Of a DNA stretch of 64,000 nucleotides, positions 1 to 15,474 are shown piece after piece. The translations under genes and the position numbers were made by a program. The first letter of the stretch is position 1. Each line of letters opens with the position of its first letter. The stretch spans positions 905 through 64,904 of the forward strand of contig JAUSED010000012.1 in assembly GCA_030650425.1 (NCBI GenBank), written 5' to 3'. Below the pieces are notes generated by a model. The model ran no database searches and was not told the origin of the DNA. It saw only the letters and a list, made by a program, of their open reading frames with translations. The stretch comes from Candidatus Omnitrophota bacterium (GTDB taxonomy: Bacteria; Omnitrophota; Gorgyraeia; Gygaellales; Profunditerraquicolaceae).

Positions 1-1
1 G

Positions 2-973
2 ATGATAGAGCCCTACAAGGGCAGAGTGTTCGACCCGGCATGTGGAAGCGGTGGTATGTTTATCATGAGCGAGAAATTTGTTGAAAGTCACAAAGGTAAA
101 ATTAGCGATATTTCAATTTATGGTCAAGAAAGTAATCAAACGACTTATCGTCTTTGTCGAATGAACTTGGCTATTCGTGGCATTGATGGATCGCAGGTCA
201 AATGGAATAATGAAGGGTCTTTCTTAAACGATGCGCATAAAGACCTCAAGGCAGATTTTATTCTTGCAAATCCTCCGTTTAATGACAGTGATTGGTCGGG
301 GCAATTACTTCAAACCGATCCACGTTGGCAATATGGCATGCCACCGGCAAGTAATGCTAACTTTGCGTGGCTTCAGCACATGATTTATCACCTTGCGCCA
401 AAGGGCGTGATGGCGTGCGTGCTTGCCAATGGCTCGCTCTCATCTCAAACAAACAACGAGGGTGATATTAGAAAAGCGTTCATTGAAAAGGATCTCGTGG
501 ACTGCATTGTCGCGCTACCTAAACAGCTTTTCTATAATACAGGCATTCCGGCATGTATTTGGTTTGTTTCCCGAAAGCGTATGGGCAATGGCGATCGTAA
601 GCGCACTGGCGAGATCCTTTTCGTTGACGCTTCGGAAGTTGGCTATATGGAAGACAGCACTCACAAGGCATTTAGCGAGGAAGATATTGTTAAAGTTTCC
701 AAAACCTACCATGAATGGCGAAGGTGCGACGGCAAATATGAAGACATCAAAGGTTTTTGTAAATCTGCCGATATAGGAGAAATCACTAAGCATAATTTTG
801 TCCTCACGCCCGGGCGCTATGTTGGCATGAAAGATGAGGTTGATGACGGCATTCCATTTGAAGAAAAGATTACTGGGCTCACAAAGAAACTTGCCGAGCA
901 GATGGTAGAAGAGAAAAAGTTGGATGAGGAAATAAAAAAACAACTGAAAAATGTTGGATTTAAATTGGGGTAA
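2..973 (+). CDS. hsdM: Type I restriction-modification N6-adenine DNA methyltransferase subunit HsdM (C-terminal portion; 5' end lies outside the window)
   Basis: SAM-binding motif I 'FDPACGSGGMF' and catalytic motif IV 'NPPF'. Directly followed by the hsdS and hsdR homologues. Confidence 0.9.
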   Translation: MIEPYKGRVFDPACGSGGMFIMSEKFVESHKGKISDISIYGQESNQTTYRLCRMNLAIRGIDGSQVKWNNEGSFLNDAHKDLKADFILANPPFNDSDWSGQLLQTDPRWQYGMPPASNANFAWLQHMIYHLAPKGVMACVLANGSLSSQTNNEGDIRKAFIEKDLVDCIVALPKQLFYNTGIPACIWFVSRKRMGNGDRKRTGEILFVDASEVGYMEDSTHKAFSEEDIVKVSKTYHEWRRCDGKYEDIKGFCKSADIGEITKHNFVLTPGRYVGMKDEVDDGIPFEEKITGLTKKLAEQMVEEKKLDEEIKKQLKNVGFKLG

Positions 974-975
974 CT

Positions 976-2214
976 ATGGCAGATCAAACTTCTACAATTC
1001 CAAAGGGCTGGAAAATGACGACACTAGGCGAGGTCATTTCTTCAGGGCTTATTTCTAATCACAATAATAAAAGATATCCTTTGGCAGGCAATGAAAGAGC
1101 GAGGCGGCAGGGCATGTTTCCTTACTATGGGGCGGCCAGCGCAATTGATTTTATAGATGAATACAAATATGACGGATTTTATTTATTAGTTGCAGAAGAT
1201 GGCACAGTTTATGATGGAAAATCTCCAATGCTTCAGTTAGTCAATGGAAAATTCTGGGTAAGCAATCACTCTCATGTATTACAAGGGAAAGATGAAATTA
1301 TTACAAAATTTTTGTCATATATTTTAAAAAATGTAAGCATTTCTCCATATATTACAGGAGCTGTTCAGCCTAAATTAACAAAAGAAAATCTTTACAGCAT
1401 TTCTTTTTTATTTCCGGAGAATGAAACTGAACAACGCGCCATCGCGGAGGTACTGTCGTCTGTGGATGATAAGATTGAGCTTTTGCGCGAGCAGAATAGA
1501 ATTCTTGAAGAAACCGCGCAGGTGATTTTTAAAGAGTGGTTTGTTAATTTTAATTTTCCTGGTGCAACCGGCAAAATGGTTGATTCCGAACTTGGCGGAA
1601 TTCCAGATAAGTGGAGAATGGGAAAATTAGGCGAAGAATTTAATATTACGATTGGAAGAACGCCTCCGAGGGAGGAGCGTGAATGGTTCTCCAGCATTCC
1701 AATTGGTAAGAAATGGATTTCAATAAAAGATATTGGAAATAGTGAAATGTATATATCTAACACGTCGGAATATTTAACAGATGAAGCAGTGGAGAAATTC
1801 AATATTCCAATAATTCCTGAAAATACAACTATTATGAGTTTTAAAATGACGGTTGGAAAGCTTGCAATTACAACAGAAAAAATGCTTTCAAATGAAGCGA
1901 TAGCTCATTTGAAAATAAAAGAAAATTCAAATCTTTCTACCGAATTTATTTATTCTTTTTTAAAGGGCTTAGATTTTAATAGCTTAGGAAGCACTTCTTC
2001 TATTGTGACAGCTATAAATTCAACAATGATAAAAGATATAGATATTTTTATTCCTGAAAAACAAATAATGCAAAAATTTAACAAAGTAATTCAGCCGATT
2101 TTTGCAAAATTAAAGAACAATAATGGCCAAATTCAAACTCTCTCCGCTCTCCGCGATGCGCTTTTGCCTAAACTGATGGAAGGTGAGGTGCGCGTGAAAG
2201 GTTTTAATAATTAA
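976..2214 (+). CDS. hsdS: Type I RM specificity subunit HsdS (two target-recognition domains)
   Basis: 412 aa, starting 3 nt after hsdM. Central conserved helical spacer 'LREQNRILEETAQ...FKEWFVNF' is typical of HsdS. Very AT-rich TRD-like halves. Confidence 0.8.
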   Translation: MADQTSTIPKGWKMTTLGEVISSGLISNHNNKRYPLAGNERARRQGMFPYYGAASAIDFIDEYKYDGFYLLVAEDGTVYDGKSPMLQLVNGKFWVSNHSHVLQGKDEIITKFLSYILKNVSISPYITGAVQPKLTKENLYSISFLFPENETEQRAIAEVLSSVDDKIELLREQNRILEETAQVIFKEWFVNFNFPGATGKMVDSELGGIPDKWRMGKLGEEFNITIGRTPPREEREWFSSIPIGKKWISIKDIGNSEMYISNTSEYLTDEAVEKFNIPIIPENTTIMSFKMTVGKLAITTEKMLSNEAIAHLKIKENSNLSTEFIYSFLKGLDFNSLGSTSSIVTAINSTMIKDIDIFIPEKQIMQKFNKVIQPIFAKLKNNNGQIQTLSALRDALLPKLMEGEVRVKGFNN

Positions 2215-2216
2215 GT

Positions 2217-3098
2217 ATGAGAAAAACGCAGTCATTCATAGATGAAAATATAAAATGGCAAGCGCTCGGCGACTATGTTTTGCGTATTGAAACGTATCGA
2301 GAAACATCCCCCGGACTTGTTATTGAAAATTGTAAGTCACTTATAGAATCAATTTTCAAAACTATTCTTGTTGAGGTTAACGCGAAGACTGAAGATGATT
2401 TAAAAAATATTGATATCAGCGGTCTGTATAAACAGGTAAAGAAAATTCTTTTTTTTGAGGAGAAAGGCTATTGCCATATCATTGGAAGCTTTTCCAATGC
2501 TATTGCGGAGTTTAGAAATAAGCTCGGAGAAACATCTCACGGGAAAGATATTTATACGCTAGAGAAAAATAGAAGCGCGCTATTTGGAGATGAAATTCAT
2601 TTTTTGCTCTCCACCACAGATAATATCGCTTTCTTTTTACTGAGCTATTACAAGAATTTATACCCTGTATATGCAGAGAAGAAGCGAGAGTTGGTTTATG
2701 GCGATTACAGTGAATTTAACGGATGGTTTGATGAAACGCAAGAACAAGTGGTTGTTGGAGGCGTGTCGTTATTGCCAAGTCGCGTGTTATTTGATGGAGA
2801 TATTGACGCATACAAGACCAGCTTGGGGGATTATTTAGGCAAGAATGATGTGGTTGAGAGGTTAAGAATAAGTCCGAACTTTGCATCAACCCATTCATTA
2901 ATAGGCGAATTGTCTCAATGTCAGAATTTTTCAAAAGAACAGGTCAGGCGATTGTTTGATGCGTTCTTCTTTAATAATCAAATCAGTTTGATAGCTACAG
3001 ATCAGGATGTGGCGGATTTTTTTACAACGCTTCTTCAGGAAAATGAAGCATTGCTTAGCGAAGGTGAATTAAATCAATTTAGGAGTCATTACAATTAA
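2217..3098 (+). CDS. Hypothetical protein embedded between hsdS and hsdR; possibly Abi/HEPN-like defence cargo
   Basis: 293-aa ORF tightly packed in the hsd operon (3-nt gaps on both sides). Positionally analogous to prrC or Abi genes embedded in Type I RM loci. Contains an R-x7-H segment 'RNKLGETSH', which is only a weak HEPN-like hint. Confidence 0.55.
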
Positions 3099-3100
3099 TC

Positions 3101-6100
3101 ATGAGCCATATTTACGAATCCACAGTTGAGGAATTTGTCATTGAGCTTTTGCAGGGTCAAGGGTTTGACTATTTATCTCCTGAGGCGCAGGAAATAGAAA
3201 GAAAAAGCCTTGCCGACGTAATTTTAATTTCCCGTCTTAAAAAAGCTATCAATATTCTTAACCCCACCATTCCGCAAGAAGCTCAAGAACAAGCTTTGCG
3301 TCAGGTTCTTAATTTGCCTAGCCAAAACCTTATTGATAATAATGAGGCTTTTCACAAAATGCTTACCGAAGGCATAGAGGTTGAGTATTTAGCAGAGCAT
3401 GGTGTGAAAGGTGACAAGGTCTGGTTGGTTGATTTTAATGATGTGCGAAATAATGATTTCATAGTATGCAATCAATTCACGGTTATCCAAAATAATATTA
3501 ATAAGCGGCCGGATATTGTTTTATTTGTTAATGGATTGCCATTGGTTGTTATAGAGCTTAAAAATCCAGCAGACGAAAATGCTACAGTTAAGAAGGCATA
3601 TACACAGATTCAGAATTATAAAAAGGCAATTTCAAGCTTGTTCTTTTATAACGAGATTTTAGTGGCGTCTGATGGATTGGATGCTAAAGCCGGGACGATT
3701 ACTTCAGAGTGGTCTCGGTTCTTGGCGTGGAAAACGGTCGATGGTGTAAAAGAGGATAAATCAACTGTTCCGCAAATTGAGACCCTTGTTAAGGGCATGC
3801 TCCGGCCGGATATTATCATTGATTTAATTAAACAATTTGTTGTTTACGAAAAGACCAGAAAAGAAGATGTAAGCACAGGGATTATAAGAATTGAGACTGC
3901 CAAAAAGGTCGCCGCATATCATCAATATTATGCCGTAGCTAAGGCTGTCGTTTCGACAAAAGACGCCGTAAAAGACGCGGGGAATCGAAAGGCTGGCGTT
4001 GTCTGGCATACTCAGGGAAGCGGCAAATCTCTTTCGATGGTTTTTTATACCGGCAAGGTTGTTCTGGAACTTGATAATCCAACGGTGGTTGTTCTTACAG
4101 ATAGAAATGATTTAGATAACCAATTGTTTGATACTTTTGCCGGGTGTAAGCAGTTATTAAGGCAGGATCCGGTTCAAGCAGAGAGTCAGGAACATTTAAA
4201 GGAACTGCTAAAAACTGCAGGGGGAGGAATAATATTTACTACTATACAAAAATTCTTTCCGGATAATGGCGAGCTGGTTTTTGATCTTTTGTCTGATAGA
4301 AAGAACATAGTTGTGATTGCTGATGAAGCGCATCGTAGTCAGTACGGATTTAGTGCAAAAACTACGGTTAAAAACGGCGAGGCATTTACGTCGTATGGGT
4401 TTGCGAAATACGTACGAGATGCATTGCCGCATGCTTCCTTTATTGGCTTTACTGGTACGCCGATTGAGAAGGAAGACGCTTCAACTTTGGCAGTATTTGG
4501 GAATTACATTGATATTTACGACATTGAGCAAGCTGTTGCTGACGGTGCGACTGTAAGGATTTATTATGAGTCACGCCTAGCAAAAGTTCATCTGAAACCA
4601 GAAGAAAAAGAAAAGCTTGATGCTGAGGTCGAGTCTGTTACTGAAGGGGAGGAATCGACTGCTAAAGAGAAGGCAAAAGCCAGATGGACACAGCTTGAGG
4701 CAATCGTTGGGCATCGGGATCGTGTGAGGATAATTGCAAAGGATATTATCGATCATTTCGAAAAACGGCAGGAAGCTTTTGAAGGCAAGGCATTGATTGT
4801 AGCAATGAGCAGGCGCATAGCAGTCGAGCTTTATGCAGAGATAGTTGCCTTGCGGCCCGCATGGCATAGTGAGGATAAACACAAAGGCGTTGTTAAAGTT
4901 GTTATGACATCGAGCTCAAGCGATCCTGAAAGCTGGCAGTTGCATAGCACGTCCAAGGATGACCGTAAGGCTATTGGAGACCGGTTTAAGGATCCCGATG
5001 ATGGATTAAAACTCGTTATAGTCCGGGATATGTGGCTTACGGGATTCGATGCACCATGCCTTCACACTATGTATGTTGATAAACCGATGCGTGGGCATAA
5101 CCTCATGCAAGCAATCGCTCGAGTTAACCGTGTATTTAAAGATAAGCCCGGCGGCTTAGTTGTCGACTACATTGGAATTGCTTCTGATTTGAAGAAAGCA
5201 TTGGCGACTTATACAGAAAGCGGTGGAAAAGGCGAGCCAATGCTTGATCAGAATGATGCGGTTGCGACTATGCTTGAGAAATACGAGATAGTCGTTCAGT
5301 TGTTTAGTGGTTTTGATTACAAGCGGTATTTTACTGCTGATACTAAAGGGAAGATGACGATTATTCTTGAAGCGCAGGAATATATTTTAGGTTTGGACGA
5401 TGGAAAAAATAGATTTACTAAGCAAGTTATATTGTTATCTAAGGCGTTTGCGTTATCAGTTCCGCATCTTGATGCTTTACGAATAAAGGATGAGCTGGGA
5501 TTCTTCCAAGCGGTAAAGGCCCGATTGACTAAATTTGAACCAACGGGTATGGGGAAGAGTGATGAAGACATAGAAACTGCTATCCGTCAGATTGTGGATC
5601 AAGCAGTTGTTGCCGAGGGTGTTATTGATATTTTTGATGCGGCTGGGATAAAGAGGCCGGATATTTCAATACTTTCGGAAGAATTTTTGGCGGAAGTCCG
5701 AGGAATGCAGAGGAAAAATCTTGCTATAGAGCTTCTCAAGAAACTTCTTAATGATGAATTGCGGATGCGCTTAAAGAAAAATCTTGTTCAGAGCCGCAAA
5801 TTGTCGGAGATGCTTGAGCAGGCTATTAGAAAATATCAAAACAACCTTCTTACAACGGCGCAGGTTATAGAAGAGCTCATCAAAATCGCAAAAGACATTA
5901 AGGAGTCAGATCAACGTGCTGAAGGTTTAGGGTTATCGGATGATGAGCTTGCGTTTTATGACGCTTTAGCAAATAACGACAGCGCGCGGGATGTTTTAGG
6001 AGATAAGACGCTTAAAGAGTTGGCAATCGTGTTGGTAGATAGGGTTAAGGCAAATGTTTCAATTGACTGGACACTAAAAGAAAGCGCGCAGGCTAAGCTG

Positions 6101-6226
6101 AGAACAATAGTCAAGAGGTTGCTTAGAAAATATGGGTATCCACCCGATAAGCAAATGTTAGCGACCGAAACTATCTTAAAACAAACAGAGCTTTTGTGTG
6201 ATGAATGGGTGGAAGCAAAGAAATAA
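3101..6226 (+). CDS. hsdR: Type I RM restriction subunit HsdR (SF2 helicase/endonuclease)
   Basis: 1041 aa. Walker A '[11 protein letters not shown]', DEAH box 'IADEAHRSQ', and the typical HsdR C-terminal helical domain. Confidence 0.9.
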
Positions 6227-6273
6227 TTATTGGTATCGACAAAGAAGGAAACAGTAATAATTGATGGTAAATC

Positions 6274-6951
6274 ATGGATGAAAAATATAAAGAATTATTT
6301 GAGTTATCGCTGAAAGTTTTAGATGAAGAACAGCAACGAACGAACAGGCTGGACGAAAAAGCTTCCAAGTATTTTAGCGTTTTAACTTTCTTGATTGGTA
6401 TTTATGGTGTTTTTTGTTCCCGCGTCCTATCGGAATGCATCCCATTTAAAGGCTGGATGGACGTTAGTCTAATCGGCTTGGGGCTTATTAACCTTTTGGG
6501 ACTAATTGCCGCTTGGTTTTTATGCTTCGCGGTTTTTCGGCAACACGTCATTGTCAAGATTCCATTGAATGACGAAATGATTAGGTTCTTTAACGATAAT
6601 GAGATGGTCGATGTCCATTACACATTGGCAAGGGCAAATAAAGACGCGCTTATCGAGAATCGGAGCATTACCGACAAAAAATCTTATTTGTTAGTGTGGA
6701 CGTATAAAATACTTTCATGGGTATTTGTTTTGATGGTTGTTATGATGTTTGTTTTTGGGATAAAAATATGGTCTACAAAAAACCATTCTAAGAGCGGAGG
6801 TGTTGTGATGACTGAGGAAAATAAATCTAAAGAGAAGCCGAAGGAGGATCTCAAGCCGCCGACTTACGACCGTATTACGGAAGGCTATGATCCGTCGAAG
6901 ACAAAGAAGATCGAGAAAGGCGTTGTTGAAAAAGATAAGGAAAAAAAGTAA
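6274..6951 (+). CDS. Small membrane protein of unknown function (about 3 TM helices, highly charged K/E-rich C-terminal tail)
   Basis: Hydrophobic segments 'FSVLTFLIGIYGVFC', 'VSLIGLGLINLLGLIAAWFLCFAVF' and 'LLVWTYKILSWVFVLMVVMMFVFGI'. Lies between hsdR and the SIR2 cassette. Confidence 0.55.
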   Translation: MDEKYKELFELSLKVLDEEQQRTNRLDEKASKYFSVLTFLIGIYGVFCSRVLSECIPFKGWMDVSLIGLGLINLLGLIAAWFLCFAVFRQHVIVKIPLNDEMIRFFNDNEMVDVHYTLARANKDALIENRSITDKKSYLLVWTYKILSWVFVLMVVMMFVFGIKIWSTKNHSKSGGVVMTEENKSKEKPKEDLKPPTYDRITEGYDPSKTKKIEKGVVEKDKEKK

Positions 6952-6978
6952 TCGAGATCTGTTCACTAAAGAACAACT

Positions 6979-7152
6979 ATGCCTGATGATCTTTTTGATG
7001 AGTTCATGGAATACGATTTCACGATGGGATCGGATGTCGTGAAATGCCCGCATTGCGGGGCCGACGTGCCATGTAGTTTGTTTTTCGATGATGAGGCTGA
7101 GTGCCCGAAGTGCGGAAAGAAGTTCCGGAAGGACGAGCATAAAGATACTTGA
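6979..7152 (+). CDS. Small zinc-ribbon protein (57 aa); absent from the ORF track because it is under 60 aa
   Basis: Manual translation gives MPDDLFDEFMEYDFTMGSDVVKCPHCGADVPCSLFFDDEAECPKCGKKFRKDEHKDT, with two C-x2-C pairs 17 residues apart. It ends 27 nt before the SIR2 gene. No strong SD. Confidence 0.45.
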   Translation: MPDDLFDEFMEYDFTMGSDVVKCPHCGADVPCSLFFDDEAECPKCGKKFRKDEHKDT

Positions 7153-7178
7153 TTTACGTGGATACAGGAGTAGTTTAA

Positions 7179-8099
7179 ATGAGCATAGAACTAGTTCCAG
7201 ATCTTAAGAAATTGCCTCATATTTATGGAGCGCATAAAGATGAAAAGTTAGTTATCTTTGTGGGTGCAGGAATATCAGCTCTTTGGGGATGTAAACGATG
7301 GAAGGATATGGCAACCGCGCTGATAGATTCTTGCTATGAACGAGGCAGTATAGACTATTGGTCACGCGAAACATTATTAACAAAGTATTCTAGCGCACCA
7401 AGGAAATTAATTACTATTGCCAAGAATATTCTCAATGAAAACTATTTGGGGGAATTGAAAAAAACACTTCAGCTAGCACATGAGCGAAAGGCTAAATTGC
7501 CCGATTTGTTTAATAACCTATTTTCGCTCAAGGCAATTTACATTACAACCAATATTGATGATAATTTCTCGAGTTTATTTGATAAAGGCAATGTTCACTT
7601 TGACCCAACCAAATTTTCAATAGCTATACTTAAACCTAAAAATATTATTCACCTGCATGGGGTTATTCATAATCCAGAAAGTCTGGTTATGACTGTGGAT
7701 GAGTATATTGACCGTTATCAGAAGGATGGTTTTAGGGAATTTTTGGAATCGGCATTCTTCGATGAAAAGTACTGCTTCCTTTTTATTGGGTACGGTGTCG
7801 ATGAGATGGAAATCATTGATTTTATGATTCAAAAATATAGCAAGGGAGTCAAATCCTTACGAGGGTTTCTGAATCGCTTTTATATTTTGTTGCCCTTCTT
7901 CCATAATGAAGAGCCGTTATTCAAATATGAACAGCTATATTTTGATCAGATAAATATGTCAGTTATACCCTATTCAATAAATGCTAAAGGCTACGATCAA
8001 TTAGATGAAGTATTGTCATCATGGCGGAAGGCATTTGAGGAATACGGCAAGGGCGATGAATTTTATGGGTTTAACCAAATTATTGAGAAGAATTTATGA
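7179..8099 (+). CDS. SIR2-family (sirtuin-like, SIR2_2/ThsA-type) protein; predicted NAD+-consuming effector
   Basis: Rossmann motif 'VIFVGAGISALWG', 'YITTNIDDNF' (cf. TQNID/TTNYD) and catalytic 'IIHLHGV'. No Zn-binding Cys module. SD 'AGGAG' 8 nt upstream. Its stop overlaps the start of the next gene (ATGA). Confidence 0.75.
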   Translation: MSIELVPDLKKLPHIYGAHKDEKLVIFVGAGISALWGCKRWKDMATALIDSCYERGSIDYWSRETLLTKYSSAPRKLITIAKNILNENYLGELKKTLQLAHERKAKLPDLFNNLFSLKAIYITTNIDDNFSSLFDKGNVHFDPTKFSIAILKPKNIIHLHGVIHNPESLVMTVDEYIDRYQKDGFREFLESAFFDEKYCFLFIGYGVDEMEIIDFMIQKYSKGVKSLRGFLNRFYILLPFFHNEEPLFKYEQLYFDQINMSVIPYSINAKGYDQLDEVLSSWRKAFEEYGKGDEFYGFNQIIEKNL

Positions 8100-11000
8100 G
8101 CCAGCTTAATACAGAAGAACAGCAAGTTCTTTATTTAATTAAAACCGATGCCGATCAAGCGAGGTATTTCTTTGCTCGGGTTAAATCATTGAAGTGGTTT
8201 TATCCTTTAAAGGATCAAGGATATTTTAGCCCGGAGAGCATTCCTTATGATTCGGAAGGACATGCGCTATTTTGGAATATTTTGAATTATTTTGAACGCG
8301 TTTCCGAGCAAGTAGCCCAGAATCCCCAATATGGCAAGGAGTTGATTGAAATCATTGAGAGTATTGTTCAATTTTCGCTTAATAAGAAGCGGGTTGACAA
8401 TTACCACATCGGGTGGTATTGCGTAAAAATCTTAAATAATCTACCTGCGGCGGTTATTAAAGATAACCTGACAGTCAATAAATTTCAGACCTGGCTTTTG
8501 GTATGGACAGATCATGGTTTAGGGAGCGATTTGACGATTAGTGATATTGGTGAAAAGCTTTTGCCGAAGTTTTTGCATGATGACTTTGGGCCTAATTATT
8601 TATATGCCGAAACAATTATAAACGTAATTACTGCAATCAAGGCTAGTGGAAAACCAGACACCTTTACAAAGCGAGACGATGCCATCATGGCTTGGCAGAC
8701 TTATTGGATTCTAGATGCTTTTAGGAAGCATGGTCAACTAATCGGTCAAAAAAGTTCTCTTAGTATTGTTTTTGAAATAGCAGAGAAGCTAAGCAATGCG
8801 TTGGAATATAAGCAAAAGGATCATTACACCGATTTAGAGATAGGAGATGCTATTTATCGCATTAGGGTTGCCAGAATCTTTGCGGATGGTCTGAAGCCTC
8901 GAGAGATTAAATTCAAGAACGATGAATATGAATGTGTAATTAGGCAATTCTCAAAAGAACAACTTGCAGGGGTTGATCGCCAGAATGATTTTTGGGCGCT
9001 TCATAATCTTGAACCGCAGATTGAATGCGGAAATTTTACATTTACTGCCTTAACGAAAGATTCGTTTGTCGCCGAAATAAGAAAGAATTTACCGACAGGT
9101 ATTAGCTGGCAAGGTGCAGACAAATTTGAGCAAAAGATCTTAAATATTCATGAAGGATTATATTCAGATTATTCACATATATGGTGCCGGACATTAAAGA
9201 GTGGGCCTGAGCATGGAGATGGTGCTGAAGATGTTTTGACTGTGATTTTGAGGGATATTTTACTTGCTAAGTGTGAAATAAATCGCGAAGCGGGCAAACA
9301 AATTTTAAGCTCCTTTTTAAACGATACTAAATATCAATTTCCCATATTCCGGCGTTTTGTACTTCTATGTATTGATAGATTCTGGACTGACTATTTTGAG
9401 CTTTTAGACAAACTGATTGAAGTTATCCCAACCATTCTTGAAGAGTCAGATCTTGAGGTAGAGATGCAAGACGTTATTCATAATCACAATTCCGCTTTTA
9501 GTCCTGTATTAAAGGACAGGTTGAAGGTTCTTATTGATAATGTTCCAGAATATTATATGAGCAAGGGGGATGAAAAACTTGTAGCTTATTGGAAATATAA
9601 ATGGTTATCGCCCTTGCGCGAAAATCCTGATTTCTCTTTTCTATATGAAGAAGCGAAACAAAAAGCCGAGCCTAAAGACGGCAAGCCATACGAGCCGGAA
9701 CGTTCAGCGTTTAAAGGTGGCTTTGTAAGTCATAAGTCACCAATTTCAAAGGAGGATATACTCAAAAAACCTGTTGCTGAAATAGTTAAATATTTGGCTG
9801 ATTTCAAAGGCGCTGATTTCTGGCATGGTGCTTTTGAAGGTGATCCGGATAGGGAAGGACTCGGGAGTGTTTTACAGGCTGTTGTAAAAGACGATCCGAA
9901 GAAATTTACTGACGAGTTTGACGCATTCATAAATGTCGATTATTTTTACCTTCAAGGAATGTTTCGAGGTATAAAAGACGCATGGAATGCCGGGACAGAT
10001 ATTGATTGGAAAAATATTTTAGATTTTAGCATTAAATATTTAAACAGAGGTAAAGATGCTATAATTGCCGAGGCTCTTAAAGCCCAAGGGGAGGACAGTG
10101 GTCAAGGACGGTATATATGGATTGTAGAGGCTATCGTTGAGTTGGTTGGCGATGGATCCAAGGATGATACAAAAGCATTTTCTCAGGAGTATTTTGACAA
10201 GGTTGAACAGATATTCGACCTAATACTTCCGTTGCTTAAAGGGGAAAAGCAGCCGGATACGCAAAGAGATGCTTTAACCTATGCATTAAATACTACTCTT
10301 GGCCGGACAATTATGGCGTATATGTCTTTTTCGTTGAGAGTTGCAAGGGCAACACAGAAAAAGAAAGAGAACTGGGGCCGGGATAAATTTGAGAGATTCC
10401 TTCCCATCGGTATAGATGGATATATTTGGCTTGGGTGCTATCTGCCACAAATGAAATACTTGGATAACGGTTATACAATAGAAAAAATCAATTCTTTTGC
10501 TCAAAAGGATTCTAGTGATTTCGAGTGGCAGATGTTTATGGAGGGATATCTGACTGGGGCTCGGGTATGTAAAGATTTATATACTTTAATGAGAGCGAAT
10601 TATATAAAGGCTCTCCAGAGTACGGTATTTAAAGGAAGGGCTGACGAGAGACTGGTTGAGCATATTTGCATTGGGTATCTTCAGCTTGGCGAAGCATTGA
10701 TGCAAAACAATGAAGAAGGCAAACCGAGTTTATTCTGGAAAATGCTTAACGAGGCTGACACAGAGGATAAACGAAGTCGATGGGAAGATGTCACTGGTTT
10801 CTTCTGGTCAATATCTGGTAGGACATTAAAAAAAGAAGAAAAAGACAAACAAGAAGAGCCATCTGAAGATTTTAAAAAGAAGATATTAGCCTTCTGGGAA
10901 TGGACAGTTAACGAACAGGAATTTGTAAAGGGGAAATTGGGTGACGCGTATTCTTCATTTCTATGCCGTATGGTAGAATTGACAATTTGGCTTGATGGGA

Positions 11001-11326
11001 TAGATGATACTACGGAAAAATGGATTATGCTTTCAGCTCCTTTTATCGAAATAGAACATCGCTCATCTTTTTTTATTGAATATTTAACTAAATTTGATGA
11101 TGATGAAAGTGTTCAGCGGATAGGCAAGATATTCATAAAAGTTTTGGAAACCGCCACGCCTAGCTTCAGGCAAGAAGAAATTCAGTTAATCGTTGGAAGA
11201 CTCTATAAGCTTGGAGAAAAGAACCCGGGAGTTAAATCAGATGCAGATAATATATGTAATACTTATGGGAGGCGAGGCGCACATTTCTTAAAGGAATTGT
11301 TTTACAAGTATAGTAAGGAACAATAA
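8096..11326 (+). CDS. Large (1076 aa) predicted all-alpha/helical-repeat protein, translationally coupled to the SIR2 gene; function unknown
   Basis: Long uninterrupted ORF with no Walker, nuclease or TM motif recognisable by eye. Helix-rich composition, possibly HEAT/ARM-like. ATGA overlap with the upstream SIR2 gene. Confidence 0.7.
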   Translation: MSQLNTEEQQVLYLIKTDADQARYFFARVKSLKWFYPLKDQGYFSPESIPYDSEGHALFWNILNYFERVSEQVAQNPQYGKELIEIIESIVQFSLNKKRVDNYHIGWYCVKILNNLPAAVIKDNLTVNKFQTWLLVWTDHGLGSDLTISDIGEKLLPKFLHDDFGPNYLYAETIINVITAIKASGKPDTFTKRDDAIMAWQTYWILDAFRKHGQLIGQKSSLSIVFEIAEKLSNALEYKQKDHYTDLEIGDAIYRIRVARIFADGLKPREIKFKNDEYECVIRQFSKEQLAGVDRQNDFWALHNLEPQIECGNFTFTALTKDSFVAEIRKNLPTGISWQGADKFEQKILNIHEGLYSDYSHIWCRTLKSGPEHGDGAEDVLTVILRDILLAKCEINREAGKQILSSFLNDTKYQFPIFRRFVLLCIDRFWTDYFELLDKLIEVIPTILEESDLEVEMQDVIHNHNSAFSPVLKDRLKVLIDNVPEYYMSKGDEKLVAYWKYKWLSPLRENPDFSFLYEEAKQKAEPKDGKPYEPERSAFKGGFVSHKSPISKEDILKKPVAEIVKYLADFKGADFWHGAFEGDPDREGLGSVLQAVVKDDPKKFTDEFDAFINVDYFYLQGMFRGIKDAWNAGTDIDWKNILDFSIKYLNRGKDAIIAEALKAQGEDSGQGRYIWIVEAIVELVGDGSKDDTKAFSQEYFDKVEQIFDLILPLLKGEKQPDTQRDALTYALNTTLGRTIMAYMSFSLRVARATQKKKENWGRDKFERFLPIGIDGYIWLGCYLPQMKYLDNGYTIEKINSFAQKDSSDFEWQMFMEGYLTGARVCKDLYTLMRANYIKALQSTVFKGRADERLVEHICIGYLQLGEALMQNNEEGKPSLFWKMLNEADTEDKRSRWEDVTGFFWSISGRTLKKEEKDKQEEPSEDFKKKILAFWEWTVNEQEFVKGKLGDAYSSFLCRMVELTIWLDGIDDTTEKWIMLSAPFIEIEHRSSFFIEYLTKFDDDESVQRIGKIFIKVLETATPSFRQEEIQLIVGRLYKLGEKNPGVKSDADNICNTYGRRGAHFLKELFYKYSKEQ

Positions 11327-11342
11327 TAAAATAGGGAGTTCT

Positions 11343-11588
11343 ATGGGCGGCAGAAGCACATCAGACAATTTTAAGAGGCGATTCGGGGATCCCGAGCGAA
11401 TCGAAATAAAGTTTGAAGCTAGAAAATTATCGTCTTCGGAGGAAGCGCGTCGAAATGAAGCGATGGCAACGGCGCATGTTGATGTCTTGAGAAATCTTCT
11501 GGGGCGCGAACCAACTCACGATGAGATTATTTGCAAAGTAGATATCTCGAAGAAATTGAGAAAGAAATATCATGAAGAAAGTCATTAG
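11343..11588 (+). CDS. Small hypothetical protein (81 aa)
   Basis: SD 'AGGGAG' 5-10 nt upstream of the ATG. Starts 16 nt after the 1076-aa gene and overlaps the next gene by 17 nt. Confidence 0.5.
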   Translation: MGGRSTSDNFKRRFGDPERIEIKFEARKLSSSEEARRNEAMATAHVDVLRNLLGREPTHDEIICKVDISKKLRKKYHEESH

Positions 11589-12417
11589 CCGGTATTTATC
11601 TCCGGAAACATACGAAGCCGTAAAGAGGGATTTTGGGTTCTTGGTCAATAAGATCGAGCAATCCGGGTATGAATATGATTTGCAGATACGCGATAACTAC
11701 ATGAACCTTTATTATAAAGGCAACAGCCTCGGGAAAATATCCTACCGTAAGTCAGAGGATCTATACGAGATCAGGATCCATCGTAAGTTTGCGGAGGGCA
11801 TCGGGTCGGAGATTAATAGGTTTAAGAATTCGCAGGAGAAGGAGTATTTATTATTTACGCTTGCAAGCAAAGAACTTCACCCTTTTTTTAGTACACGAAA
11901 TTTATTATTGATGGGGCAGAGGGTTAAAAAGGTGGGGTTTCAGGAAGAGATCGTTTTTGAGCAGATGCTTATGGCCGATAATGCCAAGAGAGATGATTTA
12001 ATAATAATAGATCGGCAGGTTGTAGATCGGAATAGTTCCACCAAGATGGATCTTCTCGCGCTCAAAAAGAAGGATGAGGGTAAGTATCAATTCTGTATTT
12101 TGGAGGTTAAGCTGGGCAACAATCCTGAGTTAAAAGGAGAGGTTTTTACACAATTGAGTGGCTATATTGCTCGTATCGAGAATAATTTTCAGGCATACAA
12201 GGAATGTTATGAAAAGAATGTTATGCAGAAGCAGAGTATTGGTTTGTTGCCAGCGGAGATTAGCATCACTATTGTCGAAGATGTCCTTGGGTTTGTAGTA
12301 GTCGGAGGATATTCAGGGCTGGGAGAGCAAAGCATAAAAGAACTTAAGGGCAAGCATCTTGACGACATAAAAGTATTACATATGAAAAATGTGATTGACC
12401 TTAGCAGGGCTAAATAA
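11572..12417 (+). CDS. Hypothetical protein with a PD-(D/E)xK-like nuclease motif
   Basis: 281 aa. '...IIIDRQVVDR...MDLLALKKK...FCILEVKLG' fits a D ... E-x-K restriction-endonuclease-fold core. Overlaps the downstream gene (taATG). Confidence 0.5.
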   Translation: MKKVISRYLSPETYEAVKRDFGFLVNKIEQSGYEYDLQIRDNYMNLYYKGNSLGKISYRKSEDLYEIRIHRKFAEGIGSEINRFKNSQEKEYLLFTLASKELHPFFSTRNLLLMGQRVKKVGFQEEIVFEQMLMADNAKRDDLIIIDRQVVDRNSSTKMDLLALKKKDEGKYQFCILEVKLGNNPELKGEVFTQLSGYIARIENNFQAYKECYEKNVMQKQSIGLLPAEISITIVEDVLGFVVVGGYSGLGEQSIKELKGKHLDDIKVLHMKNVIDLSRAK

Positions 12418-13718
12418 TGAACATAGTAATTCACCGTGGCACAAAAGAAATCGGTGGCACATGCGTCGAGTTGACGACCAATAAGTTTCGGATAATCGTC
12501 GACCTTGGCATTCCTCTGGTATCAGATAGAAAAGACCAGCCCTTCGACAGCAAGGTACTGGAGGGGAAGTCAGTCAAACAGCTATTAGGCTTAGGCGTGC
12601 TACCTGCCGTCACTGGACTGTATGTCGGGGATGAGCCGCGTGTTGACGCTGTCTTAATTTCTCATTCGCATCTCGATCATTATGGTTTGCTTCGGTATGT
12701 CCATCCGGATATTCCAATATATCTTAGCGAGGGGGCAAGGGAACTGATCAAAGTTTCCGATATCTTTACCCCTTACCGGACAGGCGACTTGACCGTTCGC
12801 ATTGTGGGTAATGGCAAAAAGTTCAAGGTGGGCGGCTTTGAGATTACCGCGTTTCTTGTCGACCATTCGGCTTTTGACGCCTTGGCGTTTATGATCGAGG
12901 CCGACAAGGCAAGGGTGTTTTATTCCGGTGATTTCAGAGGCCATGGGCGAAAAAGCGCGCTTTTTACAAGAATTATTGAATCTCCACCGAAGGACATAGA
13001 TTGCCTATTGATGGAAGGCTCAATGCTTGGCAGAGACGAGCAGATTTATAAGGACGAGATAGCGGTTGAGAAAGGCATTAAGGATGTTTTGGAGAATAAG
13101 AGCAATATCGCCTTTCTTTTTGCTTCCTCGCAGAATATTGATCGATTGGTTTCCGCATATAAAGCATGCCGCAAGACAGGCACGACCTTTGTGATTGATT
13201 TGTATACGGCATTCATTTTACACAGACTTGAGGCTAATACTAAAAGTCTTCCTCAGTTTGACTGGCCGAATGTCCGCGTAAAGTTTTTTAAGTTTCATGC
13301 GGATAAGATTGCAGAGGCTGGGCAGGAGAAGCTTTTGTACTTATTTAACAAGCAAAAAATCGAGATGGAAGAAATTGATCGAACTAAAGAAAAGGTTCTT
13401 ATGATTTTAAGAGACAATTCTTTGTTTCCCAGAGTCATCGGCCATATTCATCCGATTAAGGGCGCCCAGATTATATATTCTATGTGGGATGGATATCTTA
13501 CCGATAAATTTCAGGGATATTGTCGGGAGAAGGGTATTGCGATTAAACAGATCCATACCAGCGGGCATGCGATTCCGAAGGATCTCAAAGCATTCGCGAA
13601 AGCCTTAAATCCCAAAGTCCTCGTGCCGATACACACATTTCATTCTGAACGGTATGGAGAAATGTTTGATAATGTGAAAGTTTTAGAGGATGGGGAGCTG
13701 TGGGAGGTGCCGGTATGA
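12417..13718 (+). CDS. Metallo-beta-lactamase-fold hydrolase (probable nuclease)
   Basis: 433 aa with the 'ISHSHLDHYG' HxHxDH motif and an N-terminal beta-lactamase-fold pattern 'GGTCVEL...IIVDLG'. 1-nt overlap with the upstream gene. Confidence 0.8.
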   Translation: MNIVIHRGTKEIGGTCVELTTNKFRIIVDLGIPLVSDRKDQPFDSKVLEGKSVKQLLGLGVLPAVTGLYVGDEPRVDAVLISHSHLDHYGLLRYVHPDIPIYLSEGARELIKVSDIFTPYRTGDLTVRIVGNGKKFKVGGFEITAFLVDHSAFDALAFMIEADKARVFYSGDFRGHGRKSALFTRIIESPPKDIDCLLMEGSMLGRDEQIYKDEIAVEKGIKDVLENKSNIAFLFASSQNIDRLVSAYKACRKTGTTFVIDLYTAFILHRLEANTKSLPQFDWPNVRVKFFKFHADKIAEAGQEKLLYLFNKQKIEMEEIDRTKEKVLMILRDNSLFPRVIGHIHPIKGAQIIYSMWDGYLTDKFQGYCREKGIAIKQIHTSGHAIPKDLKAFAKALNPKVLVPIHTFHSERYGEMFDNVKVLEDGELWEVPV

Positions 13719-14248
13719 GGCGGCGTGATATTTTCTCTAAAGATGACGGTAAGAATGATATTAAAAAGCGATTGAATGCTTGGATCGAAAAACAGAAATT
13801 GACTGATGAAGAAAAAAATAAGATGTTGGAGGCTGTTCTTAACCAGCGGAAGAATATTTATCTTGTCAGGGAGACCGCGAATAAAGCAGGGCTTGGGTTG
13901 ATAAGATTTATTAATAACAAGGCATTGGAGCTGTATTTTGATATTTTAAACAAGGATAAGAGCGTTGGGTATATTTCGAAGGGTTGGGATGATCCCGGGT
14001 TTAGAGTGGGAGAGTATTTCGAAATGGACAAAAAAGACCCCGCCTTTAAAGAAAAGTTTTATAAGGTACATCAGCTTTGTTCGGGAAATTTGATTAGTGT
14101 AGGTGTGTCCGAAAAATTGCCGGGTAAAGTTGGAGTAAGTTTAGAGATTGGTATTTACGCGGATGGGTTTACCGAGAAGGTCTTGAAGAGTGCTGTTGAT
14201 ACAATGGAATCAACGATGTGTAAGATTAAGTCCACGATCGATATGTGA
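13715..14248 (+). CDS. Hypothetical protein (~177 aa), last gene of the coupled operon
   Basis: Its ATG at 13715 overlaps the MBL gene's TGA (ATGA). The ORF track begins at an upstream GTG (13700). Confidence 0.5.
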   Translation: MRRRDIFSKDDGKNDIKKRLNAWIEKQKLTDEEKNKMLEAVLNQRKNIYLVRETANKAGLGLIRFINNKALELYFDILNKDKSVGYISKGWDDPGFRVGEYFEMDKKDPAFKEKFYKVHQLCSGNLISVGVSEKLPGKVGVSLEIGIYADGFTEKVLKSAVDTMESTMCKIKSTIDM

Positions 14249-14647
14249 TCGTTGTTCTTCGGTGTTCTCAAGATGGGCAATCTTAAGCAGGGTTTTGCCG
14301 GAGAATCGTTTGATGAGGTTTTGGTCTTCAGTGGTTTTCAGGCTGGATATAAGGTCAGCTGGGATCTTATCGAGAATGGTCATAAGCTGGGATACTCGGG
14401 CCCGGGTGACGCCGAAATGGTTACCAGCGGCAGTTTGTGTTCTTTGAGGGTTTTCTACTAGATATTCCCGAACTTGGATGGCCATGGCTACGATATTCTT
14501 GTAGACTGGTTTGGGTTTTTGGGGTAAACTAGGCAATGGATCGTACAAACTGATGGATGTGCCCTTTCCGCGTCTGCGGTACATCTTCACAAGTATATGT
14601 ATTTCCTTGCACTTAGAGAGGCGTCGCTTGTAGTGTTCTGAGTCCAT
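14210..14647 (-). CDS. Orphan ParB/KorB-like HTH protein (no N-terminal ParB/Srx domain); possible mobile-element remnant at the island boundary
   Basis: 'NHFGVTRARVSQLMTILDKIP' and 'GKTLLKIAHLENTEEQ' resemble the ParB/Spo0J HTH and the following helix. Convergent with the upstream operon, overlapping it by 39 nt. Confidence 0.45.
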   Translation of the reverse strand: MDSEHYKRRLSKCKEIHILVKMYRRRGKGTSISLYDPLPSLPQKPKPVYKNIVAMAIQVREYLVENPQRTQTAAGNHFGVTRARVSQLMTILDKIPADLISSLKTTEDQNLIKRFSGKTLLKIAHLENTEEQRSHIDRGLNLTHR

Positions 14648-14763
14648 AGTGGGGAGCCAATCTTTAGAGGGGTTTATTTTTGGACGAGTTCGTAAGGAGA
14701 GTAAGCTAGAGAAGAAGCCGATAAGAAGTTAAATATTTTAACATAACCAGAAAGGAGGAGGGC

Positions 14764-15474
14764 ATGGGCAAGAGGTTGATTTTTAGTATCTTGTTTGTGT
14801 TGGGTATCGTCGCAGCTGCGCAGGCAGATGAAACAAAGTTTTTACAATTGGCGGTTTTTAATCCTGTTCAGACTGTCCCTGCGGACCAGTCAATCGCAGG
14901 CGCGCGTTTCGGGTTATTCTATACTCTCAACAAGGATGTTTCGGGTTTCAGTTTAACATTGCTAGGTTTAGATAAGACAACCGGTGATTTCAAAGGTGCT
15001 GAATTGTCTTTAGTCAACTGGGTCGAGGGGTCTTTTTATGGCTTGCGGGCAGGTATTGTTAATCGTACCGCTAATCGTTTTGTAGGCCTCGACTATGGTT
15101 TAGTCAATGTGACCGAAGGCGATTTTACAGGTTGGCAGGACGGCATTGTAAACTGGACTGAAGGGTTCTTGCACGGTTGGCAAGACGGGTTCGTGAATTA
15201 TGCCAAAGGCCGGTTCGTGGGATTACAGAGCGGGTTGGTGAACGTCTCTAAGGGAGAATTCTCTGGGGCGGCAATCGGCGCGGTCAATTACACCGATAAC
15301 CAATTCAAAGGTTTTCAGGGAGGTATATTTAATTACGCCGCTGAAATGAAAGGCTTTCAACTTGGCCTGGTTAATGTTACCAAGAAACTTAATGGCTTAC
15401 AGATAGGGTTGGGTAACTATAACGGCAATAAGCAGCCTTTTGAATTCTTACCTATCGTCAACTGGTCATTCTAA
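14764..15474 (+). CDS. Secreted repeat protein with ~10-aa 'G-[LIF]-V-N-[VWY]-x-x-G-x-F' repeats; likely a beta-rich surface protein
   Basis: Signal peptide 'MGKRLIFSILFVLGIVAAAQA', SD 'AGGAGG' upstream, and at least 10 tandem degenerate repeats (GLVNVTEGDF, GIVNWTEGFL, GFVNYAKGRF ...). Confidence 0.7.
   Translation: MGKRLIFSILFVLGIVAAAQADETKFLQLAVFNPVQTVPADQSIAGARFGLFYTLNKDVSGFSLTLLGLDKTTGDFKGAELSLVNWVEGSFYGLRAGIVNRTANRFVGLDYGLVNVTEGDFTGWQDGIVNWTEGFLHGWQDGFVNYAKGRFVGLQSGLVNVSKGEFSGAAIGAVNYTDNQFKGFQGGIFNYAAEMKGFQLGLVNVTKKLNGLQIGLGNYNGNKQPFEFLPIVNWSF

Follow-up and report, generated by a model that had tools for sequence, protein, structure and literature searches.

A translationally coupled PD-(D/E)xK and beta-CASP nuclease pair as a candidate mobile defence module of bacterial genomic islands

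Introduction

Seven co-directional genes are tightly packed between positions 6979 and 14248 of the window, i.e. the whole 64,000-nucleotide stretch of contig JAUSED010000012.1 of Candidatus Omnitrophota bacterium analyzed here, and they raise the question of whether they constitute one system or several systems stacked in the same island. [quoted passage not shown] We favor, with moderate confidence, a narrower version of the latter: the two genes at 11572-13718 would form an autonomous, horizontally mobile two-nuclease defence module that is independent of its SIR2 neighbor. Both the defence function and the mechanism proposed below are inferred, the function purely from genomic association.

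Gene organization of the locus

The features to which we refer throughout are the following:

zn57, 6979-7152, + strand: 57-aa Zn-ribbon gene, opens the upstream cargo slot
SIR2 gene, 7179-8099, + strand: predicted SIR2 half of a split Dsr1, a neighboring system outside the nuclease module
1076-aa gene, 8096-11326, + strand: predicted to supply the C-terminal (sensor) part of the same Dsr1
g81, 11343-11588, + strand: 81 aa, small basic protein (MGxR..NFKKRFGDP..LLGREPT)
G281, 11572-12417, + strand: 281 aa, first core gene
MBL433, 12417-13718, + strand: 433 aa, second core gene, compact beta-CASP enzyme of the metallo-beta-lactamase fold, predicted nuclease
g177, 13715-14248, + strand: 177 aa, optional third gene specific to the G281-MBL433 pair
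rev145, 14210-14647, - strand: convergent 145-aa HTH protein, closes the cargo slot

The ORF list and the sequence itself confirm the co-directional ORFs of 81, 281, 433 and 177 aa on the + strand and bear out their previously noted overlaps: 17 nt between g81 and G281, 1 nt at the TAATG junction of G281 and MBL433, and 4 nt at the ATGA junction of MBL433 and g177. They begin, as stated earlier, 16 nt past the 1076-aa gene (end at 11326, start of g81 at 11343), and this gap contains a GGGAG ribosome-binding site; at the distal end, rev145 and the 3' end of g177 share 39 nt. For g177, the ORF lister gives a longer reading with a GTG start at 13700, but homologues begin MRRR.., which supports the ATG at 13715. 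All four ORFs are real genes, and each has homologues: at least 6193 for MBL433 (E <= 1e-5), 417 for G281, 52 for g177 and 26 cluster representatives for g81. Promoter and terminator signal counts over 6000-15200 equal the shuffled expectation, and the scan is thus uninformative on transcript structure.

The upstream genes as a probable split Dsr1

The product of 7179-8099 matches the PADLOC Dsr1 profile PDLC04166 (3.6e-77, profile positions 6-283 of 1227) as well as Pfam SIR2_2 (4.1e-14), and that of 8096-11326, whose start overlaps the SIR2 gene stop by 4 nt, matches the remainder of the same profile (9.9e-108, positions 519-1225 of 1227). Dsr1 usually consists of a single chain of about 1200 aa with an N-terminal SIR2 and a large C-terminal domain, and works as a single-protein system. 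The score against the NCBIfam equivalog NF041818 (Dsr1) is 12.7, far below the cut-off of 1400. We regard 7179-11326 as a probable divergent Dsr1 variant split into two overlapping ORFs.

This bears directly on the idea that all seven genes form one system, with the four distal ones acting as a second effector arm co-transcribed with, and dependent on, SIR2/Dsr1. The genes of 6979-14248 are indeed co-directional, with gaps of at most 26 nt or overlaps, and the promoter and terminator signals do not rise above the shuffled expectation; but PADLOC places both halves of a complete Dsr1 in 7179-11326, and tblastn recovered no Dsr1/SIR2 homologue in any other retrieved locus with the pair, g81 or g177, including roughly 50 distinct pair loci. 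Moreover, the block of g81 and the pair also lies behind TIR+8xMP genes (L045), HerA (L060) and other genes (L055). Such a dependence is consequently highly improbable, and the seven-gene functional unit is not supported. The lack of SIR2 co-occurrence, which the initial annotation had offered as grounds for dismissing its proposal, is real but speaks only against the single-system reading; a nuclease system that acts on its own and is merely stacked in the same island fits both the varied flanks and the absence of Dsr1 elsewhere. Tight packing behind Dsr1 hence reflects the stacking of cassettes, not a single system, and co-transcription of the pair with Dsr1 is possible, given the packing and the absence of terminator signals above chance.

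Domain architecture of the cassette proteins

G281 combines an N-terminal alpha+beta domain (about residues 1-120) with a C-terminal NucS/Shedu-like PD-(D/E)xK domain that carries E130, D160 and E178-V-K180. D160...E178-V-K180 is invariant in 23 homologues, and a confident structure model (pLDDT 89) places D160 and E178-V-K180 on strands 2 and 3 of a restriction-endonuclease-like fold. G281 displays the features that define the PD-(D/E)xK superfamily (an alpha-beta-beta-beta-alpha-beta core with D on strand 2 and (D/E)xK on strand 3), and the restriction-endonuclease-like D...E-V-K core proposed earlier for this protein is upheld by the invariant residues and the fold model. Its N-terminal domain, of double-wing/frataxin-like type, probably binds nucleic acid; the resemblance of its fold to g177 is only a hint, and a profile comparison of the two was not significant (probability 0.5%). 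The closest known relatives on the G281 side are Shedu (SduA) and NucS/EndoMS-type PD-(D/E)xK nucleases, but G281 falls outside Shedu (SduA, DUF4263) as defined by a profile-detectable DUF4263 domain in a single-gene system. PADLOC returned only weak PDC-S18/S11 matches, to the nuclease core, and NCBIfam, PHROGs and Pfam hold no family for G281.

MBL433 matches Pfam Lactamase_B_2 (4.8e-17) and RMMBL (1.2e-4). In 20 diverse homologues, down to 37% identity, D29, H83, H85, D87, H88, H150, D172, E200, H384 and H406 are invariant, and with them the HxHxDH motif, here H83-S-H85-L-D87-H88. It shows all the motifs that define the beta-CASP subfamily of the metallo-beta-lactamase superfamily, i.e. MBL motifs 1-4 (D, HxHxDH, H, D) together with motifs A (D/E), B (H) and C (H/V). 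The earlier view of this protein as a likely nuclease, based on HxHxDH, is strengthened by these invariant motifs, which point to a nuclease-type beta-CASP enzyme. Its substrate is ambiguous: a His at motif C, such as H406, is reportedly typical of the RNA-acting CPSF and RNase J and not of the DNA-acting Artemis and SNM1, as Callebaut et al. are said to have noted in 2002. No PADLOC model matches MBL433, and PHROGs yielded only a generic 'metal-dependent hydrolase' for the cassette proteins. Faint precomputed matches to the anti-Pycsar Apyc1-like phosphodiesterases are confined to some homologues, and the beta-CASP insertion argues against such an identity.

The nearest solved relative of MBL433 is EF2904 (PDB 2az4, 1e-22), followed by RNase J structures; RNase J and compact beta-CASP proteins like EF2904 share with it the MBL plus beta-CASP architecture and motifs 1-4 and A-C. 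The EF2904 gene belongs to an Enterococcus operon for an ABC sugar transporter, so that a compact beta-CASP protein need not be a defence nuclease; in contrast to EF2904-like genes, those of the MBL433 clade lie in islands and have a PD-(D/E)xK gene as partner. These relationships bring up the question of whether MBL433 might be a housekeeping enzyme, RNase J or RNase Z, with the cassette belonging to ordinary RNA metabolism, as the label 'ribonuclease J' given to some homologues by JGI automatic annotation and the weak similarity to the RNase J model TIGR00649 might suggest. However, the latter similarity amounts to 78.3 bits against an NCBIfam cut-off of 400, and the other scores are likewise far under the cut-offs (57 bits against 820 for RNase J NF047419; 20.1 against 292.95 for RNase Z TIGR02651), which excludes orthology with either enzyme. 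MBL433 is also shorter, at 433 aa, than the matching solved RNase J chains (470-705 aa, most of them 553-574), and the patchy, horizontal distribution of the pair and its variable flanks in islands are at odds with a housekeeping role, to which we assign an almost negligible probability. Neither RNase J/Z orthology nor synteny with housekeeping genes, both named at the outset as observations that would count against a defence cassette, was found.

The third protein, g177, consists of an N-terminal helical hairpin and a YbjN/type-III-secretion-chaperone-like domain, bears the invariant signature GYISKGWDDPGFRVGE and has no catalytic site. PADLOC returned no match for g177 or g81. As g177 is missing from most loci with the pair, it is a specific but optional third partner.

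Conservation and genomic context of the pair

The MBL gene adjoins G281, intact or as a remnant, in 22 of the 30 assessable species-level genome loci, and a 279-300-aa gene lies directly upstream of it, with an overlap of 1-4 nt, in all nine MBL-anchored loci; an overlap of 1-4 nt between the two genes is nearly universal in the pair as a whole. Six genomes have an intact G281 with no MBL within 10 kb. MBL proteins at 35-58% identity in three loci (L048, L052, L053) adjoin partners of 308-320 aa that a chain of sequence similarity connects to G281; judged by such similarity, the partnership persists at deep divergence. The neighbors in two further loci, of 300 aa (L036) and 306 aa (L050), have a D..E-x-K motif recognizable by eye only, and hhalign and HMM comparisons established no link between them and G281.

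Members of more than 12 phyla carry the pair, including Omnitrophota, Margulisiibacteriota, Bacteroidota, Planctomycetota, Chloroflexota, Actinomycetota, Nitrospirota, Desulfobacterota, Verrucomicrobiota, Gemmatimonadota, Atribacterota and Latescibacterota, and it also occurs on alphaproteobacterial plasmids; viral contigs are nearly devoid of it, with a single locus in IMG/VR, and G281 is absent from PLSDB. The pair is patchily and horizontally distributed, and its flanks in the islands vary: it occurs behind BREX/SMC-like, TIR+8xMP, HerA, RT, HNH, MerR/recombinase and other genes, and its defence neighbors comprise type I, II and III RM, BREX, Vsr, an OLD-family nuclease, TIR, AbiE, RT, PD-Lambda-4/5, Azaca, Thoeris-like, DISARM MTase, SoFic and MADS genes. 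At the DNA level, the block 11349-14244 matches L055 with 90% identity, and the sequences to either side of it are unrelated. Decayed copies of the pair are present in five loci. The conserved unit is the G281-MBL pair only. Hence, while the genes and overlaps of the four-gene cassette are real, it is not a fixed system but a two-gene core accompanied by the optional g177 and the generic g81.

The island scaffold

The generic character of g81 is apparent from its own distribution. It is found as 26 cluster representatives and in 34 metagenome loci, among which G281-MBL lies downstream only in L055, L060 and L069 (plus L045/46); in the other loci it leads into a CBASS cyclase, PDC-S55, a PDC-S26-like nuclease, a CoiA-like protein or housekeeping genes, and it is preceded by HerA, PifA, ThsA-Macro, 8xMP, Schlafen or PDC-S02. 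An excess of third-codon-position substitutions marks it as coding. It is a junction ('punctuation') gene of islands and not specific to the pair.

Two further small genes recur in comparable positions. The coding pattern of rev145, which has weak Sigma70_r4 and ParB HTH matches, is confirmed by its codon positions; copies 70-76% identical lie downstream of g81-led cargo in eight loci, one of which (L045) has two copies flanking AbiE, and between L056 and L060 DNA homology resumes within this gene. zn57, with Zn-ribbon Pfam matches, recurs at 78-98% amino-acid identity in nine loci or locus pairs, and the cargo that follows it is unrelated among loci (for example an SMC-like ATPase, Schlafen-ending cargo in L068, ThsA-Macro, or c4-c5-G281-MBL). 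The arrangement suggests a scaffold in which zn57 would be followed by a first cargo (here the split Dsr1), g81, a second cargo (the nuclease module) and the convergent rev145, and the slot of the pair is occupied in other loci by CBASS, PDC-S55 and other defence cargo.

In its boldest form, this leads to the proposal that zn57, g81 and rev145 are a dedicated platform for exchanging or controlling defence cassettes, integron-like but with short protein-coding 'sites', and that G281-MBL(-g177) is one of its cargoes as well as a new anti-phage system in its own right. Recombination breakpoints within g81 and rev145, the duplication of rev145 on both sides of a second cassette, and a cargo range spanning Dsr1, CBASS, Thoeris-like, PifA, HerA, Schlafen, AbiE and the nuclease pair are consistent with this proposal, which we nonetheless regard as doubtful. 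Defence-island hotspots and integron-like cassette arrays similarly hold variable defence cargo, differing by genome, between conserved landmarks, but those landmarks are core housekeeping genes or attC sites, whereas those of the scaffold are small protein-coding genes inside the array. Searches for attC-like sites, terminal inverted repeats and direct repeats around the cassette gave chance-level short matches only, the window contains no tRNA gene, and no integron integrase is among the annotated genes.

Comparison with known systems

The statement in the initial annotation that no named system has this combination holds for PADLOC, NCBIfam and the searched literature, in which the only beta-CASP or MBL defence associations found were type VII CRISPR and protease-MBL modules. 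The latter occur in Avs, Hachiman, SPARTA and UG9 systems, where the MBL DNases are zymogens encoded beside a trypsin-, caspase- or subtilisin-like protease that activates them (PMC12642450; PMC12799240; PMC9226505). They resemble the pair in that an MBL-fold nuclease serves as a modular defence effector hopping between unrelated systems, but the partner in our case is a PD-(D/E)xK nuclease and the enzyme is of the beta-CASP type; no protease gene adjoins the pair, either in the window or at any locus annotated with Pfam, which rules out a module of this kind. Cas14 of type VII CRISPR-Cas is likewise a beta-CASP MBL nuclease recruited to immunity. MBL433 scores 27 bits against its model NF045584 (cut-off 800), and no cas genes (Cas7/Cas5) are annotated beside the pair in the loci examined, so it is not a Cas14. 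Classical restriction-modification is also rejected, as the conserved unit holds no methyltransferase and those nearby belong to separate, variable RM systems.

Proposed mechanism and alternative interpretations

We propose that translational coupling would yield G281 and MBL433 in fixed stoichiometry and that the two would act jointly on invading nucleic acid. By likeness to its structural relatives NucS and Shedu, G281 is predicted to recognize and cut DNA; the beta-CASP enzyme might then degrade from the new 5' ends or cut single-stranded DNA or RNA, comparable to RNase J and SNM1-type enzymes. Where present, g177 could be a non-catalytic regulator or inhibitor, or a sensor-adaptor. The module would function independently of Dsr1, even if the two are possibly co-transcribed.

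The same features could be viewed differently if the pair served the mobile element itself, as a DNA-processing, recombination or addiction module (e.g. for end-processing at excision or transfer, or as a toxin-like stabilizer), and were found in defence islands only because these are mobile. NucS-like and beta-CASP enzymes do perform repair or processing in other settings; in L038-L040 translational coupling links the pair to an upstream MerR/Xis-like HTH gene and a downstream large serine recombinase, and integrases, resolvases, DUF3854, ArdA, conjugation ATPases or MobF plasmids are found nearby in three loci (L001, L043, L052). Yet most loci have no adjoining recombinase, the immediate neighbors are overwhelmingly defence and not transfer genes, and the slot filled by the pair is one that accommodates other defence cargo, all of which makes this reading unlikely. 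A second possibility retains a role in immunity but casts MBL433 as an RNase J-like abortive-infection toxin acting on cellular or phage RNA, which G281, with or without g177, would release upon infection as its sensor or inhibitor, in a toxin-antitoxin-like manner. The RMMBL RNA-specificity motif, the His at motifs B and C, the rank of RNase J structures as next best sequence relatives, the chaperone/regulator fold of g177 and the frequent decayed copies, which are expected of toxic genes, would all agree with it. Against this, the fully invariant catalytic site of G281 argues for an active nuclease and not a sensor alone, and g177 cannot be an obligatory antitoxin because it is missing from most loci; we hold this possibility to be likewise unlikely. 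The autonomous two-nuclease defence module accordingly remains our preferred interpretation of 11572-13718.

Implications

The result corrects the operon-based reading of the locus. If the pair indeed protects against phages or plasmids, the defence catalogue would gain a widespread two-nuclease system, and the first with a free-standing beta-CASP enzyme that lacks both a CRISPR and a protease partner. Database relatives of the MBL clade number more than 6000 (E <= 1e-5), and its PD-(D/E)xK partner lies outside Pfam, NCBIfam and any strong PADLOC family. Beyond the pair, the scaffold of zn57, g81 and rev145 offers a concrete handle on cargo swapping in the defence islands of uncultured phyla, and both of its slots could serve for mining further unknown systems.

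Architecture of the island and the conserved core of the cassette

The region has the following organization, with ordinary genes beyond rev145:

1-6226: type I RM system, including a 293-aa gene between hsdS and hsdR (2217-3098) with no Pfam match
6274-6951: 225-aa transmembrane protein between the RM system and zn57, with a weak PycTM-like match (1.2e-3)
6979-7152, + strand: zn57, a 57-aa Zn-ribbon gene
7179-8099: 306-aa SIR2 ORF of a split Dsr1
8096-11326: 1076-aa ORF of the split Dsr1, overlapping the preceding ORF by 4 nt
11343-11588, + strand: g81, 81-aa ORF
11572-12417, + strand: G281, 281-aa ORF, predicted PD-(D/E)xK nuclease
12417-13718, + strand: MBL, 433-aa ORF of the β-CASP metallo-β-lactamase fold
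13715-14248, + strand: g177, 177-aa ORF
14210-14647, - strand: rev145, a convergent 145-aa HTH gene

The initial annotation described g81, G281, MBL and g177 as a translationally coupled four-gene cassette. Their co-directional, overlapping arrangement is borne out: read directly from the sequence, g81 and G281 overlap by 17 nt, the G281/MBL junction is TAATG and the MBL/g177 junction is ATGA, while homologues were found for each of the four. The 16-nt gap between the 1076-aa gene and g81 bears a GGGAG ribosome-binding site, and the ATG at 13715 is preferred over a longer GTG start (13700) for g177 because its homologues start MRRR. The four genes do not form the conserved unit, as g177 accompanies a minority of pairs and g81 mostly occurs with other cargo.

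In all nine contexts found via MBLs at 59-91% identity, a gene of 279-300 aa lies directly 5' of MBL with a 1-4 nt overlap, and in eight it is a clear G281 homologue. A G281-anchored scan, taking one genome per species, recovered 31 loci, spread over more than 12 phyla; MBL adjoins G281 in 22 of the 30 that were assessable, with the gene order reversed in three pair loci and decay in several. The pairing extends to diverged MBLs (35-58% identity) in three further loci, namely L048 and the plasmids L052 and L053 of Rhizobium and Ochrobactrum, where the adjoining proteins are 308-320 aa long and can be connected to G281 through a chain of sequence matches. A statistical link to G281 was sought and not found for the partners in loci L036 and L050, where a D..E-x-K motif is discernible by eye only. 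Thus, the recovery of both genes together in the look-ups, in the scan and at deep divergence identifies the G281-MBL pair as the evolutionary unit. Decayed copies in L013, L014, L028, L032 and L033, comprising MBL remnants of 73-130 aa, frameshifted G281 genes or G281 fragments alone, indicate that the module is often lost.

The g177 family is small (52 matches) and every placeable member adjoins an MBL of this clade: in the window, L015, L043/44 and L055, and as remote versions 3' of the 308-aa partner and MBL in L048 (44% identity) and convergent with MBL and its 306-aa partner in L050 (37%). In its place, other pairs have third genes that encode, for example, a NOV_C protein, proteins of 219, 270 or 418 aa, or a serine recombinase. 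A five-gene variant recurs in L003 (4974-10540), L009, L010 and L041/L042, with two unannotated genes (~368 and ~363 aa; no Pfam match), G281, MBL and a ~414-418 aa protein, which is NOV_C in L003; zn57 precedes this variant in L041 and L009. In the Paludibacter-like contigs L038-L040, the pair is translationally coupled to an upstream 59-aa MerR/Xis-like HTH gene and a downstream 541-aa large serine recombinase, and may be the cargo of a small integrative element.

The two enzymes

MBL matches Lactamase_B_2 and the RMMBL motif in Pfam; its nearest structure is the compact β-CASP protein EF2904 (2az4, 1e-22), followed by RNase J structures. It is not an orthologue of the housekeeping RNases J or Z since its scores against those NCBIfam families (78 bits against a cut-off of 400, and 20 against 293) fall far short. 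The EF2904-type protein, its closest solved relative at 24% identity, clearly differs in genomic context; the Enterococcus gene (OR846619.1; L054 3971-5269) lies within an ABC sugar-transporter operon with an ATPase, two permeases and a solute-binding protein. Across 20 homologues, with identity down to 37%, the MBL and β-CASP motifs are entirely invariant (D29, H83xH85xD87H88, H150, D172, E200, H384, H406).

G281 belongs to no family in Pfam or NCBIfam, and a sequence search of the PDB gave no match. Its AlphaFold model, from an alignment of 23 homologues, is confident (pLDDT 89.4, pTM 0.88) and predicts an α+β N-terminal domain resembling frataxin/YdhG, T4 MotA-CTD and YjbR. E130, D160 and E178-V-K180 are invariant in the homologue alignment and, in the model, fall on the expected secondary-structure elements. 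The earlier motif calls, HxHxDH in MBL and D...E-V-K in G281, are accordingly correct.

Proposed role and alternatives

Around the pair lie, among others, RM systems of types I, II and III, Vsr and BREX, together with ATPases of the SMC-like, OLD-family and KAP types, and TIR, RT, AbiE and HNH genes. A set of 120 proteins encoded near it in 22 genomes also contains PD-Lambda-4/5, Azaca, DISARM MTase, SoFic, PDC-S02/S11 and MADS components. The pair is nearly missing from viral contigs, and integrases or recombinases are sometimes adjacent. We propose it as a candidate autonomous defence module. It would operate much as other nuclease-based systems do (Shedu, restriction-like systems and MBL effector modules). 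G281 would recognize DNA, with its N-terminal domain binding nucleic acid, and its NucS/Shedu-like nuclease domain would cut it; the coupled β-CASP enzyme might then degrade from the new ends or attack single-stranded nucleic acid, and g177, where present, could modulate either enzyme. A variant in which the module is RNA-directed and acts by abortive infection draws on the His at motif C of MBL, and we consider it improbable. The main non-defence rival, that the pair processes mobile-element DNA, appears unlikely. Tested for membership of Shedu, RNase J/Z, Cas14, protease-MBL modules and classical RM, the module qualified for none, and the pair is not described in the defence and family catalogues or literature searched. 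We regard it as a candidate nuclease defence module with a free-standing β-CASP enzyme.

The upstream region 7179-11326 gives PADLOC Dsr1 matches (3.6e-77 and 9.9e-108). The two ORFs together exceed the PADLOC profile by ~150 aa and score far below the cut-off of the NCBIfam Dsr1 equivalog. The suggestion that the cassette belongs functionally to this SIR2 (Dsr1) system is not supported: among the other loci fetched for the pair, g81 or g177, none has a Dsr1/SIR2 homologue, and L055 matches the block 11349-14244 at 90% identity, whereas the DNA on either side is unrelated. Co-transcription with Dsr1 is possible; promoter and terminator scans were uninformative on transcript structure.

A recurring scaffold with variable cargo

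A conserved motif and an excess of third-position substitutions (e.g. 12, 11 and 37 at codon positions 1, 2 and 3) mark g81 as a true coding gene. Among the 34 metagenome loci from a g81-anchored search, G281-MBL lies downstream only in L055, L060 and L069; L045/46, from the MBL/G281 look-ups, share this arrangement. Elsewhere g81 is followed by a CBASS cyclase, PDC-S55, a PDC-S26-like nuclease or a CoiA-like protein, or in some loci by plain housekeeping genes (RND efflux, Na/H exchanger), while directly 5' of it are HerA-system, PifA, ThsA-Macro, 8xMP, Schlafen or PDC-S02 genes, with Dsr1 in the window. The window g81 is 85% identical to that of L056, which has CoiA-like cargo, versus 54% to those of L060 and L045 with the same G281-MBL cargo; at the sequence level its likeness does not track the cargo. 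Hence g81, as mostly found with other cargo, is not part of the nuclease system.

The convergent rev145 recurs 0.3-3 kb 3' of g81 in many loci. The DNA of L056 and L060 is 87% identical as far as the 3' part of g81, wholly different in the cargo that follows (CoiA-like versus G281-MBL), and again alike, at 93%, within rev145. L045 has two rev145 copies (11036-11446 and 13556-13942; 75% identical) bracketing an AbiE cassette (DUF6577 and AbiEii) directly 3' of the g81-G281-MBL block, which suggests tandem cassettes, each closed by one rev145. At the other end, zn57 is retained at 78-98% identity in at least nine distinct loci, where it opens the upstream slot ahead of unrelated cargo. Repeats and tRNA genes flanking the slots were sought in the window and none was found. 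Together, zn57, g81 and rev145 constitute a scaffold that recurs across loci and has two slots of variable cargo, one of them occupied by Dsr1 in the window and the slots filled in other loci by SMC-like ATPase, Schlafen, Thoeris-like, HerA, PifA, CBASS, PDC-S55, AbiE or the nuclease pair. These scaffold genes punctuating the island are a more unusual observation than the nuclease module itself.
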